Assembly: GCA_021814835.1 (NCBI GenBank) | Contig: JAKAHO010000002.1 | Span: 1-33,056 of the forward strand | Reading direction: 5' to 3' | Length of the DNA stretch: 33,056 nt | Origin: a bacterium | GTDB lineage: Bacteria > Patescibacteriota > Minisyncoccia > UBA6257 > GWB1-50-10 | Part shown: positions 1 to 27,423 of the stretch, piece after piece | Layout of the letters: every line of letters starts with the position of its first letter | Position numbering within the stretch: the stretch's first letter is position 1 | Notes under the pieces: generated by a model | What the model saw: the letters and a program-made list of their open reading frames with translations, nothing else | What the model was told of the DNA's origin: nothing | Database searches by the model: none | Position numbers and translations under genes: made by a program

Positions 1-433
1 GATTGCGAACCGATGTCCGCACATGGGCGCTTTTCCCTGCAATAACGCCGAATCCCGGCTGTCCCGACTCAAGTTCCTCGGCAAGCATAGCGCCCCCGAT
101 ATACGCAATCGGCTGACCCGCGTGGAGTTCGCGGGTGAGAAATTCATATGATGTCTCGCCTCTCGCTTGTTGCAATCCCTTTGAAATGGTAACCGCAACG
201 GTATCGCGATGCACAAACGGACGCACCTGTTTTAATGCCCCCGGCAGGCACCACGAGGGCACGCACAAGAAAAGAAATTGCGCGTGCGGCACTATTTCAA
301 AAAGCGACTTCTGGCCTTGCACCTTGCCGGGGCAGATATCCCAGCATTGCACAACATGCCTCGAGCGCCCGACAAGCGACCGCATTGCCCGCCCCATCTC
401 TCCCATTCCCACGATAACCACACGTGGTTTCAT
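1..433 (-). CDS. gpsA: NAD(P)H-dependent glycerol-3-phosphate dehydrogenase-like protein, N-terminal part (gene runs off the window start)
   Basis: Hand translation of the minus strand from ATG at 433 is open to position 1: MKPRVVIVGMGEMGRAM...ISKGL...IGGAMLAEEL. It has an N-terminal Rossmann-like G-x-G-x-x-G, and the ISKG / GxxxAxE pattern resembles GpsA. The ORF is not in the supplied track because it has no stop inside the window. Confidence 0.55.
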   Translation of the reverse strand, partial: MKPRVVIVGMGEMGRAMRSLVGRSRHVVQCWDICPGKVQGQKSLFEIVPHAQFLFLCVPSWCLPGALKQVRPFVHRDTVAVTISKGLQQARGETSYEFLTRELHAGQPIAYIGGAMLAEELESGQPGFGVIAGKSAHVRTSVRN

Positions 434-440
434 ATATTCA

Positions 441-1088
441 TTATACCTTTAATTTCGAAACAGGACACTCGGAATGATTGTGTTTTTTTGCCGAGCAATA
501 TTCCCTTCCGTACATAATAATGCGCAATGAAAGATTGCGCCATTCGCCGCGCGGAATTATTTCCATAAGGTCGCGTTCGATTTTTTCGGGGTCTATATTT
601 TCGGTAAGCCCCCAAAGACGCGTAAGGCGCCGCACGTGCGTATCCACCGCGACTCCCTCCACAATGCCGTACGCGGCTTCCAGAATCACATTAGCAGTCT
701 TCCTTCCTACGCCGGGAATGGTAATAAGCTCCTCCATCGTGCAGGGAACCTTCCCGTCAAATTGCTCCTTCACAAGTTTTGCGGCTAAAAGAATATTCTT
801 TGCCTTGTTGCGGTAAAAACCCGTAGACTTTATATCTTTCTCAAACGCTGACTGCTTCGCGCGGAGATAATCCTCAAACTTCGGATACTTCTTGAACAAA
901 TCCGCAGTTACCTCATTTACTTTTTTGTCGGTGCATTGCGCGGAGAGCACCACCGCAACCAAAAGCTCCCAAGGATTGCTATGATTCAGCGAAACGCGTA
1001 TCTCGGGGTACAGTTTTTTAAGCAGCGCGATTATTGCCGCTGCTTTTTTCCTCCGCTCAGCAAGAAGCGCCCCGCTCATTTTTTTCAT
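441..1088 (-). CDS. nth: Endonuclease III (HhH-GPD base-excision DNA glycosylase)
   Basis: 215-aa ORF. It has an Nth-like core (LVAVVLSAQCTDKKVN) and a helix-hairpin-helix GPD motif (LITIPGVGRKTANVIL ... VDTHV). The C-terminus carries only two Cys (C-x9-C) instead of the usual four Fe-S ligands. Confidence 0.85.
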   Translation of the reverse strand: MKKMSGALLAERRKKAAAIIALLKKLYPEIRVSLNHSNPWELLVAVVLSAQCTDKKVNEVTADLFKKYPKFEDYLRAKQSAFEKDIKSTGFYRNKAKNILLAAKLVKEQFDGKVPCTMEELITIPGVGRKTANVILEAAYGIVEGVAVDTHVRRLTRLWGLTENIDPEKIERDLMEIIPRGEWRNLSLRIIMYGREYCSAKKHNHSECPVSKLKV

Positions 1089-7963: not shown

Positions 7964-8695
7964 TTAAAGTGAGGTATTAAGAGTACTCGCCTCCGCAACA
8001 ATCTCATCAATAAGCGCACGCAAATCCCAATCCGTACGCCGATACCATGTACGACTCAAACGGCTGACAATTGCTTTATGCTCAGGATAACCGAGTGATT
8101 TTACTTTAAAACATCGCAGCCATTCGGGTGAATTTTGAACCAGAGTATTAAAAATTTCCGATATGTGCCATACAAAAAAATTGTCCTCGTCGCGTTTATA
8201 TTTCGGATAATGCTCATAAAAATAATCATAAAACATAAAATGAAGCATCTCGTGCGCTATAACCACCGAAACAAATCCCGCGGTGCGATGCGAAAACGGA
8301 ATCTGAAATGTCTTATCTTCCAAAAAACGCGGATACATTCCCCAAATCGTCCCGAAAGCGATGTGCTTCCCGCGCGGCCATTTTCTTCCTGCGAATAACG
8401 CATCAACGAGCTCAAAATAGCGCGGAGCAACTTTCAGCCAACGCATTTTATGCCCGCGCATCGCGCGGCTCATTGTGCCCTTCCTCGTTTTATAATTCTT
8501 GATGACAAAATCACGAAGCGCCTTATCATCCAACACCTTCCAGTCATTTTTCTTATCAAAATACTTAATAAGGCGGGGGTAAGTATTAAAAATAAGCCAA
8601 TACAAATTTCTCTCATCAGCTTCACGGATAAATATGCGAAGCGTTTCTAAATCTTTCTTCGCGCTTATTTGAAACTTAATATTCGGATATGCCAT
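7964..8695 (-). CDS. Hypothetical protein with an HExxH metallopeptidase-like motif
   Basis: 243-aa ORF. It contains VVIAHEMLHFMF (HExxH) and a downstream glutamate (WHISEIF). I recognise no other family features. There is no obvious SD. Confidence 0.55.
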   Translation of the reverse strand: MAYPNIKFQISAKKDLETLRIFIREADERNLYWLIFNTYPRLIKYFDKKNDWKVLDDKALRDFVIKNYKTRKGTMSRAMRGHKMRWLKVAPRYFELVDALFAGRKWPRGKHIAFGTIWGMYPRFLEDKTFQIPFSHRTAGFVSVVIAHEMLHFMFYDYFYEHYPKYKRDEDNFFVWHISEIFNTLVQNSPEWLRCFKVKSLGYPEHKAIVSRLSRTWYRRTDWDLRALIDEIVAEASTLNTSL

Positions 8696-8701
8696 AATCG
8701 T

Positions 8702-8739
8702 AAAAAAACGGGGAGAATAACTATTTCGTTATCCTCCCC
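8702..8739 (-). terminator. Intrinsic terminator immediately after the radical SAM/SPASM gene
   Basis: On the minus-strand RNA the stem is GGGGAG-g-AUAAC / GUUAU-u-CUCCCC (11 bp with one mismatch) and the loop is 6 nt. It is followed by G and U7. Confidence 0.6.
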
Positions 8740-8770
8740 ATTGTAGCAATTGTGCAGAACTACCTGCAAC

Positions 8771-10126
8771 TTACCGAGCGGCGGCGTACGCATCCCAAAC
8801 AAGCCACTCAAGAACGCGCTTGCTATGAAAACACGCACGTTCATCGATGTTGTTCTTATCGCCCGTTTTCAGCTCAGCGCTCGCCGGACATCCGCCGCCG
8901 CAAATACCAAGAGCGGGGCAATCCGTGCATTGGGTCATGAAAAACGGGGAGCGATTACGCCAGTTCTCGAAAAGCACATCGAGAAGGTCGTCATGGTCTG
9001 TGTCGTACACAGAACGAGGGAAATACGTTCGTGTCTTAACAAAGTCCTGACAAACCCCGATTCTGCCGTCGGGCGCAATGACAAGCTGACGACCGACAAC
9101 TCCGCAATCCGCGTACATCGGTTCCTGGTCTACAAACGCGCTCACCTTGCGAATGATGCGATCTTCATAAAATCCGATCTCTCGAAAACGCTGAAATGCC
9201 TTAATCTGGCACTCCACCGCCTTGCGATAGAAATCATCGGACAATTTCACGTGCGGAGTATAATGGAGCAGATTCAGACTTGCGCCGTCGGCCGCTCGGA
9301 ATTCCCCTTCCGTGAAAAACGCGAGAAACTCATCGAAATGATCGACGGCCTCCGGCGTCAACGTTACTGAAAGCCCCACGCCTACACCATGCTTCTTCAG
9401 CAAGCGGAACGCATGGGTAATCCTCTCGGCCACGTTGATACCCGACCGCTTCGGTACGCGGTAGAGATTCGTGATAAACGCGGGACCGTCAATTGAGAGT
9501 CCCACTGAAACGGCATTCGCGGAGAAGAATTGTGCGTCTTCTTCGTTGAGTAGGACGCCGTTCGTGACAATCACCAGACGGCAACTGTCCGGCAAAGAAC
9601 CGCGAGCCTTGAGCTCATTGGCGTAAGACACTGCTCTGTACACTGCCTTACGGTTTGCCAGAGGCTCTCCGCCATAAAGATGGATTACTTTCTCAAGTTG
9701 CGGGTTGCCGTATCGCGCCGTCATTGATGCGAACAAATCGAGCGACTTTACGACCGCTTCCTCCGACATGTGCATCGCTCGAAACGAGCCCGACACCGAT
9801 GGAGATTCCTCGAAGCAATAGGTGCAACGAAGGTTACAGCCATCGGTAACAAGCAAGTACATCATCTCAAGCGACATTTTCGATCTGAGCTGATCACGCA
9901 GACGAATAAAATTCTCCTCATCGTCCACGTCGTTTACTACCAGCATTCCCTGCGAAACGAGGGAATTTTTTAGTTCGCCCTCACCTCCATTAGCGGACGA
10001 ACGCAATTCCTCCTTGAAAGCTTGAAGCTCACAGGAAGGAACATAGACCACTCCAAGAGTCAGCGAATGCACCAGTGCAGAGACTTCACCCTGACGCATT
10101 TCATGGCACCATCGAGAAAATCGCAT
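8771..10126 (-). CDS. Radical SAM / SPASM-domain peptide-modifying enzyme (putative RiPP maturase)
   Basis: 451-aa ORF. The radical SAM cluster motif is C97-x3-C-x2-C (DGCNLRCTYCF). A full SPASM signature is present: C-x12-G-x4-C (CGVVGRQLVIAPDGRIGVC), then C-x2-C-x5-C-x3-C (CTDCPALGICGGGC), then a trailing Cys (ACFHS). About 90 aa precede the core, the size of a peptide-recognition (RRE-like) domain. The SD is AGAGGGAAGG, just before the ATG. Confidence 0.9.
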   Translation of the reverse strand: MRFSRWCHEMRQGEVSALVHSLTLGVVYVPSCELQAFKEELRSSANGGEGELKNSLVSQGMLVVNDVDDEENFIRLRDQLRSKMSLEMMYLLVTDGCNLRCTYCFEESPSVSGSFRAMHMSEEAVVKSLDLFASMTARYGNPQLEKVIHLYGGEPLANRKAVYRAVSYANELKARGSLPDSCRLVIVTNGVLLNEEDAQFFSANAVSVGLSIDGPAFITNLYRVPKRSGINVAERITHAFRLLKKHGVGVGLSVTLTPEAVDHFDEFLAFFTEGEFRAADGASLNLLHYTPHVKLSDDFYRKAVECQIKAFQRFREIGFYEDRIIRKVSAFVDQEPMYADCGVVGRQLVIAPDGRIGVCQDFVKTRTYFPRSVYDTDHDDLLDVLFENWRNRSPFFMTQCTDCPALGICGGGCPASAELKTGDKNNIDERACFHSKRVLEWLVWDAYAAAR

Positions 10127-10153
10127 ACCTTCCCTCTCTTTCGGGTATAGAGA

Positions 10154-10179
10154 GGGGGCGGAAAAATTCTTCCGCCCCC
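10154..10179 (-). promoter_or_regulatory. Stable intercistronic stem-loop between the precursor peptide gene and the maturase gene
   Basis: The stem is a perfect 10 bp (GGGGGCGGAA / TTCCGCCCCC) with a 6-nt loop. No U tract follows, so it is not a canonical terminator. It could be an attenuator or an mRNA-stabilising/processing element. Confidence 0.5.
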
Positions 10180-10197
10180 CTTGATGATGAGCCTACT

Positions 10198-10329
10198 TCA
10201 CTTGCAGCGCGTGCACGAAGTGTAGCAGCACTTCGGCCCGCCCTTGCCTTCGCGGACGTTCCCCATGACCTTCACCCGGTTGCCGGGCTGGAGCACGATG
10301 ACCCGCGTCTTCTTGGGAGACTTGTCCAT
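10198..10329 (-). CDS. 43-aa Cys-rich putative RiPP precursor peptide (MDKSPKKTRVIVLQPGNRVKVMGNVREGKGGPKCCYTSCTRCK)
   Basis: This is the internal ATG of the 71-aa track ORF. It is preceded by a strong SD (GGTAGGAGAGGAAAC-ATG). The peptide has a basic leader-like N-terminal part, a Gly-Gly, then four Cys in the last 10 residues. It lies directly upstream of, and co-directional with, the rSAM/SPASM gene. Confidence 0.7.
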   Translation of the reverse strand: MDKSPKKTRVIVLQPGNRVKVMGNVREGKGGPKCCYTSCTRCK

Positions 10330-10369
10330 GTTTCCTCTCCTACCAATTTTATACGCTACTATCAGGCAG

Positions 10370-10388
10370 AAAATCCACAGTGGATTTT
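10370..10388. promoter_or_regulatory. 19-nt palindrome (AAAATCCAC-n-GTGGATTTT) about 40 nt upstream of the precursor ATG
   Basis: The arms are a perfect 9 + 9 nt inverted repeat around a single central base, inside an AT-rich leader/promoter region. It is a candidate operator or 5'-UTR hairpin. Confidence 0.35.
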
Positions 10389-10538
10389 CATTTAATATTA
10401 TTAACCTGACCAATGGCGCTAAAGATTGGATTTTTGTTGTGAACGACCCGTCGAATAGTATGCATTATATACATCATTCCGTCAAACTCTGGCACACAAG
10501 AACGGCGGGGGTGTTATCAAACAAAATATTTCTGATGC

Positions 10539-17051: not shown

Positions 17052-17372
17052 CTAGCGGCAGGTGTTACAGCTGGAGCCGCACCCGCTGTTGCAGCACCAG
17101 AGGCCCGGCGAACAAAGGTTGTTGATGCAAGTGTAGGCATATCCTGCCGCGGCACACGTGTTCCCGCCTCCACCGCCGCCGCTGTGGCACAAGTTGTCCG
17201 CGCCGCAAGACCAGCCGGCGTCGCAGTAGCCGCTGCCATTCGGCACACAGCAAGCGCTTGCCGGCATGCAACCGCTTCCGCACTCCACCTTGCCGGCCGC
17301 ACACTTCTTGTCCACGGGACCGCACGCCGAAAGGAATACCGTCGCAAGTGCGACCATCAGAAGCTTCGCCAT
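17052..17372 (-). CDS. Small cysteine-rich putative lipoprotein
   Basis: 106-aa ORF with SD AAGGGGGAA. It has a signal peptide plus a lipobox-like LSAC. It contains 17 Cys and a Gly6 run. The segment is locally GC-rich, so several frames are open. Confidence 0.65.
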   Translation of the reverse strand: MAKLLMVALATVFLSACGPVDKKCAAGKVECGSGCMPASACCVPNGSGYCDAGWSCGADNLCHSGGGGGGNTCAAAGYAYTCINNLCSPGLWCCNSGCGSSCNTCR

Positions 17373-17651
17373 GATTCCCCCTTATTCTAAGCGTGTGAAT
17401 TTTCTAACGTGTTAACGTACAACATCTGTAGTATCTACTGCTTCCCGCACATCGTCAAATCACACAACAAAAAGCCCCACCCCGAGTCCGGAATCAAAAA
17501 TCCCTATCTTCATACGGTCCTTATTATATCGCAATAAAGACAGATGTAAGCTTTCTTCCATTCCCGCGTCTCACTGTATGAAGGAGCGCGCAATCAATAA
17601 AAAGGTCGAACGCAAATTTCGTGTCTCCTGTCGGTAACACTATCTATCACT

Positions 17652-25383: not shown

Positions 25384-27423
25384 TTATTTAATTAAAAGAT
25401 TTACGTAAAAAACAGTTCCTACCCCCTCCTTCGATTCAAACCAAACCCTCCCTCCCAATCTTTCCACAAGCGTTTTAAGAAGATAAAGTCCCAACCCGGT
25501 TCCCATAGGCACTTTTTCCTTTATATTGTCGGCGCGGAAAAGTTTAGTAAAAATTCTGCTCTTCGCCTCATCGGGAATTCCATAACCGCTGTCCTTAACG
25601 GCGATCATAACCTTGTTGTCCGTCTTTTCGATGGTAATGTCAACCTTTCCGTTCTCGGGAGTATATTTTATCGCATTCGTAAGCAGGTTCTGAAGAATAA
25701 TTCTTGCCGTTTTTGTTCCGATAGCAAGGTAGGGAATCCCGTCTCCATATTTCTTCTGCAACACTATTTTTTTGTCCGTAATTTGACTCGCGAGTTCGTT
25801 CAATACCGAATCTGAAATCTGCAATAAATCCACCTCCCCTTCCTCTATGGGAAATCCGCTTGCTTCTATTTTGGTGATATCGAGAAATCCGCCGACCAAT
25901 TCGGCCATATTTTTACTGCTCTCATGAATTTGTTTCAACACCGTTTTTTGTTCTTCGCTTATCGGTCCCTTGTCACCATCAAGCAACGCCTCAACATTCC
26001 ACGATATTGCGGTAATCGGCGTACCAAGCTGATGCGAGGCAAGAGAAATAAACTCACTCTTCGCCTTGTCTAATGCCCTTTCTTTGCTGATATCCCTTTC
26101 TATTCCCACGAAATATATGAGCGCGCCTCTCACATCAAAAATCGGGGATATGCTTATTATTGCGGTATATACCGTTCCGTCTTTTTTTATATTGGTGATT
26201 TCTCCTACGTATTCCTTTTTTTGGGTCTTAATGACGCTCCATAGATTCTGATAATATTCTAGACCCATCGGCTGCCTCCAAAGCACGCCGGCCTTTTTGC
26301 CGATTGCCTCTTCGGGCTTATAGCCGGTTATTTTTTCGATTGCCCTATTGCCATAAATTACAATTCCCTCCGCGTCGGTAATTACAATCTGATCGGATGC
26401 ATTATCCACTGCAAGTTTAAACTTCTGCAAATCATTTGCGAGTTTTTCGATTTTATTTCTTTCCGACACTATCTGCCCTCTGCGCCGATACGCGAACCAC
26501 AAAAAGAAAAGAAAGAGCGATTCAAAAACAAACGAAATGCCGGCATACAACTCAGTCCTTTGGTAAGCGCTGTCTATATAACTTGGCGTAAGTTTTAACT
26601 GCCAAACCTTATCAGCAATCACTATATCCTGACTCACCTCGCCCGTTCTCGGCAAAATATAATTCTGCGCTGCCGGATCTTTTACAAGGTCGCCTTGAGG
26701 ATTAATAACGCGCTCGCCGCTGTTGTTCAGTATGACATCGGCCCCGATGGGAACAATAAAGTTTTTAGTTTGAATATATTCGTTTTTGCTGTATACGAGA
26801 CTGCTGCTCGCAACAGGCGCAAGCAAATGGGACAAACGCATTACCACCAACGCCTCCCCAAAATAATTACCGCCTCTATAAATCGGAGAATACAGAATAA
26901 GCCCCGGATATCCCTGTTGAAGCATAATCGGTTCAGTAACAACCGTAGAGCGAGTTGTTTTTGCTTTTTCTATCGAAAGTAAACGATTGGGGTATTGATT
27001 CAGATCCAATCCTATGACTTTGGCATTATCCTCGTTCATCGGATATGCGTAACGGATATTGTTATTCGCATCAACCCATTCAATAGTAATGGGCATCGCA
27101 ATTGGTCCCGCGGCAATACTCCCCACAAGAGCGGAGCTAAATAAATCGAACTCCTCTTTATTTATTTCGTTGCCGGAAGCGAAAAAGGCGCGAGTACTTT
27201 CTACGGCGACCGATACGGCTTGTAGGCGTCTGTTAATTAAAGACTTAGTGCCTTCAACTTCGTTATTGTAAACAGTGCGTGAAAATCCAAGTTCCAATCC
27301 GTATCCGATGATATTTATCCCGATAAGCAATAATAAAACCAATAATCCCGGAATAATAACGACGAGTATTCCGGGAAGAATAAAGAGTTTCGGCGCATTC
27401 AATGATGTGTCGCCTTCTTCCAT
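25384..27423 (-). CDS. Sensor histidine kinase (extracytoplasmic sensor domain - TM - PAS - HisKA - HATPase_c)
   Basis: 679-aa ORF. Two TM segments flank a ~260-aa periplasmic-type domain. It has a PAS-like region (DQIVITDAEGIVIYGNRAIEKITGY), an H-box (SHQLGTPITAI), an N-box (LLTNAIKYT) and G-boxes (DSGYGIP, GTGLGLY). There is no response regulator in the window. Confidence 0.9.
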   Translation of the reverse strand: MEEGDTSLNAPKLFILPGILVVIIPGLLVLLLLIGINIIGYGLELGFSRTVYNNEVEGTKSLINRRLQAVSVAVESTRAFFASGNEINKEEFDLFSSALVGSIAAGPIAMPITIEWVDANNNIRYAYPMNEDNAKVIGLDLNQYPNRLLSIEKAKTTRSTVVTEPIMLQQGYPGLILYSPIYRGGNYFGEALVVMRLSHLLAPVASSSLVYSKNEYIQTKNFIVPIGADVILNNSGERVINPQGDLVKDPAAQNYILPRTGEVSQDIVIADKVWQLKLTPSYIDSAYQRTELYAGISFVFESLFLFFLWFAYRRRGQIVSERNKIEKLANDLQKFKLAVDNASDQIVITDAEGIVIYGNRAIEKITGYKPEEAIGKKAGVLWRQPMGLEYYQNLWSVIKTQKKEYVGEITNIKKDGTVYTAIISISPIFDVRGALIYFVGIERDISKERALDKAKSEFISLASHQLGTPITAISWNVEALLDGDKGPISEEQKTVLKQIHESSKNMAELVGGFLDITKIEASGFPIEEGEVDLLQISDSVLNELASQITDKKIVLQKKYGDGIPYLAIGTKTARIILQNLLTNAIKYTPENGKVDITIEKTDNKVMIAVKDSGYGIPDEAKSRIFTKLFRADNIKEKVPMGTGLGLYLLKTLVERLGGRVWFESKEGVGTVFYVNLLIK

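Follow-up and report, generated by a model that had tools for sequence, protein, structure and literature searches.

What is the role of a short, cysteine-rich open reading frame (ORF) that lies just ahead of the gene for a radical S-adenosylmethionine (rSAM) enzyme in a bacterium of the Patescibacteriota? This question is raised by a locus in a 33,056-nt stretch of DNA (GenBank GCA_021814835.1, contig JAKAHO010000002.1, positions 1–33,056; lineage GWB1-50-10), hereafter the window. The Patescibacteria, or candidate phyla radiation (CPR), are uncultivated organisms with minimal genomes, in which surveys of genomes frequently find few biosynthetic gene clusters or none. One survey found none in its Patescibacteria genomes (PMC11613949). 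In the window, three genes on the minus strand form a cassette of ~2.4 kb, in the order 43-aa precursor, hairpin, 451-aa maturase, hairpin and 243-aa protein with an HExxH motif, and the trio of precursor, maturase and HExxH protein recurs in ~85 loci of uncultivated Patescibacteria. We propose that the locus probably belongs to an uncurated family of ribosomally synthesised peptides that carry post-translational modifications (RiPPs), almost confined to Patescibacteria, in which the precursor would be modified by a maturase built of a RiPP recognition element (RRE), an rSAM core and a SPASM region, with the HExxH neighbour acting as set out below. Judged from sequences, what is new here is a sister of the FibroRumin RiPP family that is centred on Patescibacteria; its short core is distinct, and it has a conserved HExxH partner without an assigned structural family. 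The models of NCBIfam and Pfam cover neither the peptide nor the specific maturase clade nor the HExxH partner, and our literature search found no publication on FibroRumin, on a CCYTSC core, or on ranthipeptide, RiPP or rSAM systems of this kind in CPR/Patescibacteria.

The precursor gene (10198..10329, minus strand) encodes MDKSPKKTRVIVLQPGNRVKVMGNVREGKGGPKCCYTSCTRCK, 43 residues followed by a stop codon, and a Shine-Dalgarno (SD) site, GGAGAGG, ends 5 nt ahead of its ATG. The peptide consists of a basic N-terminus, the leader motif VIVLQPGNRVKVMGNV, a variable linker and the core CCYTSCTRC, after which comes a Lys; the maturase ORF starts 71 nt downstream. A preliminary description of this DNA had listed the ORF with its SD site, the 71-nt gap and a 451-aa enzyme carrying CxxxCxxC and seven-Cys SPASM motifs, all of which are indeed present on the minus strand. 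It had also remarked that the ORF track shows the precursor only as a spurious 71-aa extension. The ORF listing does give only a 71-aa, TTG-initiated form (TTG at 10413), which was rejected here, its N-terminal extension having no counterpart in homologues.

The relatives of the locus were drawn from 25 loci of species-representative genomes and 80 loci of metagenomes, all fetched with relatives of the enzyme, and short ORFs with at least two Cys upstream of the enzyme gene were listed without bias. In 18 of the 18 genome loci with upstream DNA, one ORF ends 59–137 nt before the enzyme gene in ...CC[YF]T[SVADQ]C[TSNM][RY]C. Most metagenome loci likewise carry a homologous short ORF upstream of the enzyme, with W, H, Q or N as variants at core position 3 and also S or A at position 4. 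Genome and metagenome loci together give 58 distinct peptides, which share a basic N-terminus, the leader consensus v-x-VP-x3-R-x-KVLG-x-I, a variable linker of 7–15 residues and a core of nine residues, usually situated at the C-terminus or no more than two residues from it. Within the core, C2 and C6 are invariant and R8 and C9 nearly invariant, residue 7 varies (T/S/M/N/A/V/C), and residue 3 can be Y/F/H/Q/N/W. The mean pairwise identity is 0.82 for the core, a value somewhat inflated because the peptides were gathered with a motif pattern, compared with 0.33 and 0.15 for leader motif and linker, respectively. Outgroup loci, with enzyme identities of 33% or less, deviate in the pattern of the upstream ORF as well. 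The window peptide has no match in NCBIfam at E ≤ 1 and none in Pfam, and 28 family peptides searched against NCBIfam at E ≤ 10 gave nothing save one chance match.

Could the ORF have arisen by chance upstream of an enzyme whose actual substrate is different, such as a sulfatase or a cofactor? In favour of this, the source annotation has no 43-aa gene call for it, and only 32 called proteins with this peptide, all of them unnamed or "hypothetical", occur in a database of 5.8 billion sequences. However, the motif is kept across the 58 distinct peptides, an SD site is present, the enzyme has a predicted RRE, and the models of anaerobic sulfatase-maturating enzymes (anSMEs) score far below their cut-offs. 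The identical core CCYTSCTRC is encoded by 15 different DNA sequences, in which nine of nine third codon positions vary and only three of 18 first and second positions do; over all cores, the pairwise differences at codon positions 1, 2 and 3 amount to 2667, 2218 and 8668, respectively. This third-position bias is what purifying selection on a translated sequence produces. Because the ORF recurs upstream of orthologous enzymes and its core substitutions fall mainly at third codon positions, it is more than a chance ORF, and the probability of the chance explanation is close to nil. The claim in the preliminary description that a short Cys-rich precursor and an rSAM/SPASM maturase form a RiPP-type pair is thus borne out by the conserved upstream peptide in nearly every locus, and both the co-occurrence of the pair and the conservation of the Cys hold over ~85 loci. 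Comparative sequence data therefore make it very probable that the small ORF and the adjacent enzyme are a real precursor/maturase pair.

The maturase (451 aa; 8771..10126, minus strand) carries the rSAM cluster motif C97-x3-C101-x2-C104 (9815..9838), which is invariant in 65 homologues, and a SPASM region with seven Cys (8831..9106) in the arrangement C341-x12-G354-x4-C359, C400-x2-C403-x5-C409-x3-C413 and C432. These motif residues are invariant or nearly so in sets of 23 and 65 homologues; the SPASM Cys from C341 to C413 are invariant, C432 is conserved in at least 90%, and the SPASM Cys of the family align one-to-one with those of CteB and TigE. The protein scores 64.1 bits with the Pfam Radical_SAM model PF04055 (cut-off 29.5), and the Pfam SPASM model gives a weak match (14 bits against a cut-off of 21.5). 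The AlphaFold2 (AF2) model has a mean predicted local distance difference test score (pLDDT) of 94 and a predicted template-modelling score of 0.91. At its N-terminus, strands 7–12, 15–20 and 26–30 are followed by helices 31–43, 51–58 and 66–82, which is the topology of an RRE at high confidence, so that residues 7–82 (9881..10108, minus strand) are predicted to be a winged helix-turn-helix peptide-recognition domain. The best match of the family profile in the PDB is TigE (8VPO, E 4e-31), aligned from profile position 3 (TigE residue 5 onwards) through RRE, rSAM core and SPASM, where residues 3–85 of TigE are its RRE (PMC10878394); the profile also matches CteB (5WGG), aligned from residue 27. 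The peptide-recognition domain that had been proposed earlier from the length of the N-terminus is hence supported by both the model and the profile.

In a Foldseek search, the top neighbour of the maturase model is CteB (E 4e-22, TM-score 0.71–0.75, full length over 459 columns), then TigE (E 2e-21), then anSME, ChlB and SuiB. Because the motifs are invariant, the profile matches TigE and CteB, and the predicted N-terminal domain and the Foldseek neighbours agree, the enzyme is assigned, on its sequence and predicted fold, to the RRE/rSAM/seven-Cys SPASM class, as a sister clade of the FibroRumin maturases. It was also considered as an anaerobic sulfatase maturase and rejected: the anSME model TIGR03942 gives 89.3 bits against a cut-off of 349, and the anSME models span only residues 93–432, with the N-terminal RRE region outside, so the enzyme stands apart from the sulfatase-maturase clade that the preliminary description had named as the finding that would overturn its reading. 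A defence protein was rejected too, as the PADLOC scan showed only generic rSAM core similarity to pVip. More than 120 database clusters are 45–73% identical to the window maturase. Where the organism names of these homologues are informative, almost all are Patescibacteria (Azam-, Portnoy-, Lipton-, Moranii-, Nealson- and Wolfebacteria, Paceibacterota, Parcubacteria), and the few other labels are either unspecific or probably wrong ("bacterium", "uncultured Gammaproteobacteria", one "Bacteroidota"). The distribution is patchy, with an in-family maturase in ~20 of 185,579 species-representative genomes of all phyla. In one locus (L005:6536-7630, plus strand), a second, shorter rSAM/SPASM gene of 364 aa, lacking an N-terminus of RRE length, lies just past the cassette.

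Which known system is the closest? The best NCBIfam model for the maturase is TIGR04136 of FibroRumin, which ranks first for 23 of the 23 homologues tested (best E 8.6e-93). Its alignment with the window maturase is of full length, residues 3–447 against model positions 1–454 of 458, and includes the N-terminal domain, but the score of 231.6 bits is below the cut-off of 400. All other models score far lower, namely PapB (115.5 against 340), CbpB, the SCIFF maturase TIGR03974 (101.7 against 425) and QhpD; the cyclophane-forming families YhhB, GrrM and FxsB are also among the matches. A reference FibroRumin locus was found on a plasmid of Campylobacter sp. RM16187 (NZ_CP012551). It encodes two tandem precursors of 55 aa (...ELFGLINIQANYVESCIGQCTGCMCSCRCSCSGK... 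and ...KKLFGLILDNDNIIAARCACVSCNSCTCACSCRK...) and a UvrA-like ABC (ATP-binding cassette) ATPase, with no HExxH protein. The precursors of both families are short and Cys-rich, and the leader ..KKLFGLIL.. of Campylobacter resembles ..RAKVLGKI.. of the CPR peptide (LFGLI compared with KVLGxI). In contrast, the Campylobacter maturase is only 29% identical to that of the window, the 28 CPR peptides tested do not match the FibroRumin peptide model, and the cores of FibroRumin are longer, consisting of CxCxC runs with an acidic tail after them, whereas the CPR core is the nine-residue CC[YF]TSCTRC near the C-terminus. A locus with an enzyme of 33% identity (L098:2181-2435, plus strand) seems, judging by its sequence, to stand between the two types of precursor in evolution: a short upstream ORF joins a CPR-type leader (vvPtd..fqRvtGKI) to a FibroRumin-like CxCxC core (RCACHCQCVCNC...; RCACHCQCVCNCPSTCANCK), and no HExxH gene follows its maturase. 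No published account of FibroRumin chemistry was found.

The preliminary description had interpreted the locus differently, as a self-contained, two-gene "mini-SCIFF" of the ranthipeptide type, with a SCIFF-type precursor, an ScfB-type maturase and no dedicated protease. The SCIFF/ranthipeptide systems (CteA-CteB, which makes thermocellin; PapA-PapB, which makes freyrasin) do resemble the cassette in architecture: a 43-aa precursor with a Cys-rich C-terminal core goes with an enzyme of ~450 aa and of RRE/rSAM/seven-Cys SPASM type, the core is conserved more than the leader, no exporter is kept nearby, and CteB, itself a SCIFF maturase, is the top structural match. Nevertheless, the SCIFF maturase model TIGR03974 matches in two partial stretches, ranks fourth and, like the PapB model, falls far short of its cut-off, the peptide has no NCBIfam match, and the CPR core has four Cys in a 9-mer instead of six in ~45 aa and lacks CxxxD or Cx4T repeats. 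The Gly-Gly ahead of the Cys core, once taken as a feature of the system, is confined to the window peptide and a few relatives and is not conserved in the family, so a double-glycine cleavage site was rejected. The CPR cassette moreover keeps an HExxH partner, which adjoins in 84 of 86 in-family loci and leaves the two-gene, protease-free claim unsupported, and it occurs in Patescibacteria rather than in Clostridia. On the sequence comparison, SCIFF membership is already refuted, and a mini-SCIFF as a whole is very unlikely; FibroRumin is nearer.

What chemistry would the maturase perform? We suggest, by analogy with the CteB-CteA and TigE structures, that the leader motif binds to the N-terminal RRE as an added β-strand, and that the core then enters the rSAM active site, where the 5′-deoxyadenosyl radical would take a hydrogen from the acceptor carbon of Tyr3, Thr4, residue 7 or Arg8. 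By analogy with sactipeptide and ranthipeptide enzymology, a Cys thiolate (C2, C6 and C9 are invariant or nearly so) would form a thioether, both thiolate and electron being handled by the SPASM clusters, and the HExxH protein would then most likely trim the leader. Thioether formation is preferred because the best-scoring characterised families (PapB, ScfB, QhpD) and the top structural match CteB form thioethers, and because the only invariant residues of the core are Cys; by this analogy, Cys-derived thioether chemistry has about an even chance of being correct. The enzyme could instead make a C–C or cyclophane link from Tyr/Phe3, epimerise a residue or oxidise Cys, the invariant Cys then serving as metal ligands or in disulfides. 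In support of such chemistry, the match to the cyclopropyl synthase TigE is as good as that to CteB, the cyclophane families YhhB, GrrM and FxsB appear among the NCBIfam matches, and the residue at core position 3 is aromatic in 53 of 57 distinct core DNA sequences. Yet position 3 accepts Q and N, strict invariance is limited to Cys, and the characterised families that score higher, PapB, ScfB and QhpD, form thioethers. TigE/TvgB, the cyclopropylglycine synthases, are the best PDB profile match of the family (RRE, rSAM and SPASM) and the second-best structural match, but act on a repeated Val/Ile motif that the CPR substrate does not have. Their GYW motif is diagnostic, its Tyr ligating the Aux I cluster (PMC10878394), and it is absent from the aligned positions of the CPR family, so the cyclopropyl-synthase reading was rejected. 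Taken together, this class of alternatives appears unlikely.

Some observations nevertheless count against the cassette and chemistry that we favour. The nearest solved structures are a mixture of a C–C bond former, TigE, and a thioether former, CteB, and the nearest curated family, FibroRumin, is uncharacterised; the variability of core residues 7 and 3 leaves no single obvious acceptor. In one in-family locus (L077), no precursor was found within 450 nt upstream of the maturase or by a six-frame Cys-motif scan of the locus. The all-against-all comparison of neighbours revealed no exporter, immunity gene or regulator kept beyond the three parts of the cassette.

The sole further gene conserved beside the pair in that comparison encodes the HExxH protein (c1; 243 aa, 7964..8695, minus strand), a candidate zincin-type metallopeptidase. 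It lies directly downstream of the maturase gene, on the same strand, in 84 of the 86 in-family loci with sufficient DNA, but is convergent in L087 and absent from L055. In L055 (1187-1990, plus strand), whose maturase is 65% identical, its place is taken by a 267-aa S33-type α/β hydrolase (Pfam Hydrolase_4, serine aminopeptidase S33), which may be a non-orthologous replacement or just the next gene after loss of the HExxH gene. H148, E149, H152, S179, E180, N183, Q187, Y203 and H206 are invariant in 32 homologues. The segment H148-E149-x-x-H152 is encoded at 8240–8254 (minus strand), and in the AF2 model (pLDDT 93) the HExxH motif and E180 lie on consecutive helices, residues 141–162 and 169–187, after strands 112–116 and 129–133. 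With this Glu on the next helix as candidate third ligand, the protein agrees at the sequence level with the zincin/gluzincin metallopeptidases. Sub-threshold Pfam matches also point to putative zincins, namely DUF3267 in 21 of 32 members (best E 0.0036), DUF5700 in 8 of 32 (best E 1.3e-5, in one member) and SprT-like. In one locus, L006, a second HExxH gene copy (190-888, minus strand) lies 3 kb upstream on the opposite strand. The G+C content of the HExxH gene is 0.40–0.45, compared with 0.50–0.55 for the adjoining maturase gene and 0.50 for the whole window.

Is this protein the leader peptidase of the cassette? Leader trimming is suggested by the motif together with the synteny. On these grounds, it is somewhat more probable than not that the protein acts on the cassette peptide at all; that it does so specifically as the leader peptidase is plausible but falls a little short of an even chance. 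It might instead be an independently regulated enzyme with a wider role, such as a housekeeping peptidase, a factor in immunity or degradation, or a metalloenzyme without proteolytic activity, next to which the peptide/rSAM pair would just tend to lie. Several results argue in this direction and against the role that we assign to it. The protein matches no Pfam or NCBIfam family above threshold, a sequence-profile search of the PDB gave nothing, and Foldseek found no significant neighbour (best E 2.9 in the PDB and 0.038 in a viral library), so that similarity to a proven peptidase is lacking in these searches; PADLOC gave no match either. A profile search of 1.84 billion representatives yielded 374 clusters at E ≤ 1e-10. 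Six in-family copies were sampled from this side, of which L117 and L119 are canonical cassettes, L115, L116 and L118 are orphans and L120 has another context; half of the six copies (3/6) thus occur without the cassette. In distant relatives (33% identity), the motifs are retained but the contexts are different, one example being a locus with two GT2 glycosyltransferases. Nearly all cassettes include the HExxH gene, but not every HExxH gene is part of a cassette.

The organisation of the spacer ahead of the HExxH gene bears on the same question. In the window, the compound spacer between the maturase and HExxH genes (8707..8770, minus strand) holds a −35-like TTGCAG (8764–8769), 18 nt, and a −10-like TACAAT (8740–8745) that overlaps a terminator-like hairpin of 15 bp followed by T7 (8742..8707, minus strand; z −6.2 against dinucleotide shuffles), and the ATG of the HExxH gene lies 11 nt past this hairpin without an SD site. 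This design is common to the loci: a −35-like TTGAxx, often over the stop codon of the enzyme gene, is followed after 16–18 nt by a −10-like TAnnnT, often with TG upstream. The −10-like box ends no more than 7 nt before a GC-rich T-run hairpin in 46 of 65 distinct loci, and a −35 is added in 31 of the 65, compared with 18% for the −10-like box and 1.8% for both boxes at random positions. The median distance from hairpin to ATG is 9 nt, and an SD site at 5–13 nt is missing from all 65 loci. The orphan and other-context copies in L115, L116, L118 and L120 keep the same leader of promoter, hairpin and ATG, including copies that have no rSAM gene upstream. Judging from these sequences, the HExxH gene seems to be transcribed separately, from its own promoter-like element, which again weighs on the side of independence. 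The hairpin would terminate transcripts from the precursor-enzyme unit and so insulate the HExxH gene, while transcripts from the internal promoter would start within the 5′ arm of the hairpin and so escape termination. The preliminary description had the unit closed by a terminator; the hairpin is real, and for the transcript this may hold, but a third conserved gene follows, and the hairpin is part of its leader.

Against independence, adjacency and orientation hold in those 84 of 86 loci when viewed from the rSAM side, while every other neighbour varies; and the HExxH and the Glu on the next helix fit a gluzincin active site. The protein also recurs beside another rSAM/Cys-rich-peptide pair: in L120:1014-4217 (plus strand), an in-family copy is preceded by an rSAM enzyme that differs from the maturase (437 aa, 23% identity), by a 176-aa second HExxH protein (IIHEMIHL) and by a short Cys-rich ORF ending ...KKLGLSTSKSIDLKMQSSQCAGQCRCAY. 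The same partner may here serve a Cys-rich peptide system of a second type. On balance, we regard it as rather unlikely that the HExxH protein is something other than the leader peptidase and only happens to lie beside the pair.

The upstream part of the cassette contains further candidate control elements. A sigma-70-like promoter candidate (TTGACG, 17 nt, CATACT; 10457..10485, minus strand) was found upstream of the precursor gene by a consensus scan, which gave five such sites in the 3-kb region where 3.8 are expected and hence is weak evidence for this site when taken alone. Between this candidate and the SD site, ~40 nt upstream of the precursor ATG, lies a perfect palindrome with 10-bp arms, GAAAATCCAC-t-GTGGATTTTC (10369..10389). 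The form GAAAATYCAY-n3-RTGRATTTTC occurs at the same relative position, with paired changes in the arms, in L026, L028 and L037, and a variant in L017/L018; the palindrome is present in 6 of 51 distinct upstream regions, where 0.02 are expected per region. It may be an operator or a hairpin of the 5′ untranslated region. Between the precursor and maturase genes there is a GC-rich hairpin of 12 bp without a T-run (10153..10180, minus strand; minimum free energy −27.9 kcal/mol; z-score relative to dinucleotide shuffles, −2.0), which may act as an attenuator or affect mRNA stability. Strong structure is seen in this spacer in 53 of 59 distinct loci and in both intergenic spacers in ~90% of distinct loci, with median z values of −3.8 for the precursor-maturase spacer and −4.0 for the other, against mononucleotide shuffles. 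The hairpin after the precursor gene would favour an excess of precursor transcript.

What, finally, might the product be for? The pyrroloquinoline quinone (PQQ; PqqA/PqqE/PqqF) and mycofactocin (MftA/MftC/MftE) systems combine a small precursor, with its reactive residues at or near the C-terminus, with an rSAM/SPASM enzyme and a separate hydrolase, have no dedicated exporter and conserve the core more than the leader. Their sequence relation to the CPR cassette is only at the level of the general SPASM class, the CPR cassette has no further tailoring genes, and its Cys-rich core is unlike either precursor. By analogy, the pattern of a conserved core with no kept exporter or immunity gene is closer to that of SCIFF, PQQ or mycofactocin than to that of a diversifying bacteriocin, and the nearly invariant CC[YF]TSCTRC argues for one conserved target or function. 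A speculative proposal, which we consider improbable as it stands, is that the product has one conserved role in Patescibacteria, as a peptide-derived cofactor, a metal-binding compound or a signal between episymbiont and host rather than a diversifying bacteriocin, and is processed by a zincin-like enzyme of a fold absent among solved structures, whose gene has the unusual leader described above. The core identity of 0.82 compared with 0.33 for the leader, the missing exporter and immunity genes, and 7TM-type histidine kinases in several flanks are compatible with such a role. The cassette is a compact, recurrent peptide-modification unit whose substrate gene callers usually miss, and with a model built from the leader motif and the core, annotators could find these precursors. 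Its function, once defined, would provide a first handle on peptide-based chemistry in Patescibacteria, as well as a role for an HExxH family of several hundred clusters.

In ~8 distinct loci (L002, L004, L009, L012, L018, L023, L087 and L102), sensor histidine kinases are encoded at most a few kb from the cassette, several of them with a sensor region of the HisKA_7TM type, and response regulators are near the cassette in four loci. These kinases are a weak hint at function. The sole kinase of the window, of CHASE-PAS type (25384..27423, minus strand), sits 15 kb from the cassette.

Beyond the cassette, the flanks are unrelated between loci. A scan of the whole 33-kb window revealed neither tRNA genes nor any Rfam family at the gathering score. 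An ORF of 109 aa in the window (17052..17381, minus strand) has a lipoprotein-like signal (MAKLLMVALATVFLSAC...) and a body very rich in Cys and Gly, with no relation to the cassette peptide. The neighbours of the cassette in the window are housekeeping genes. Their products are a BipA GTPase, a methyltransferase, a fusion of a UvrD-type helicase with a PD-(D/E)XK nuclease, a phosphoribosyl pyrophosphate synthetase, an undecaprenyl pyrophosphate synthase, two P-type ATPases, one of which has a heavy-metal-associated domain, and a major facilitator superfamily transporter.

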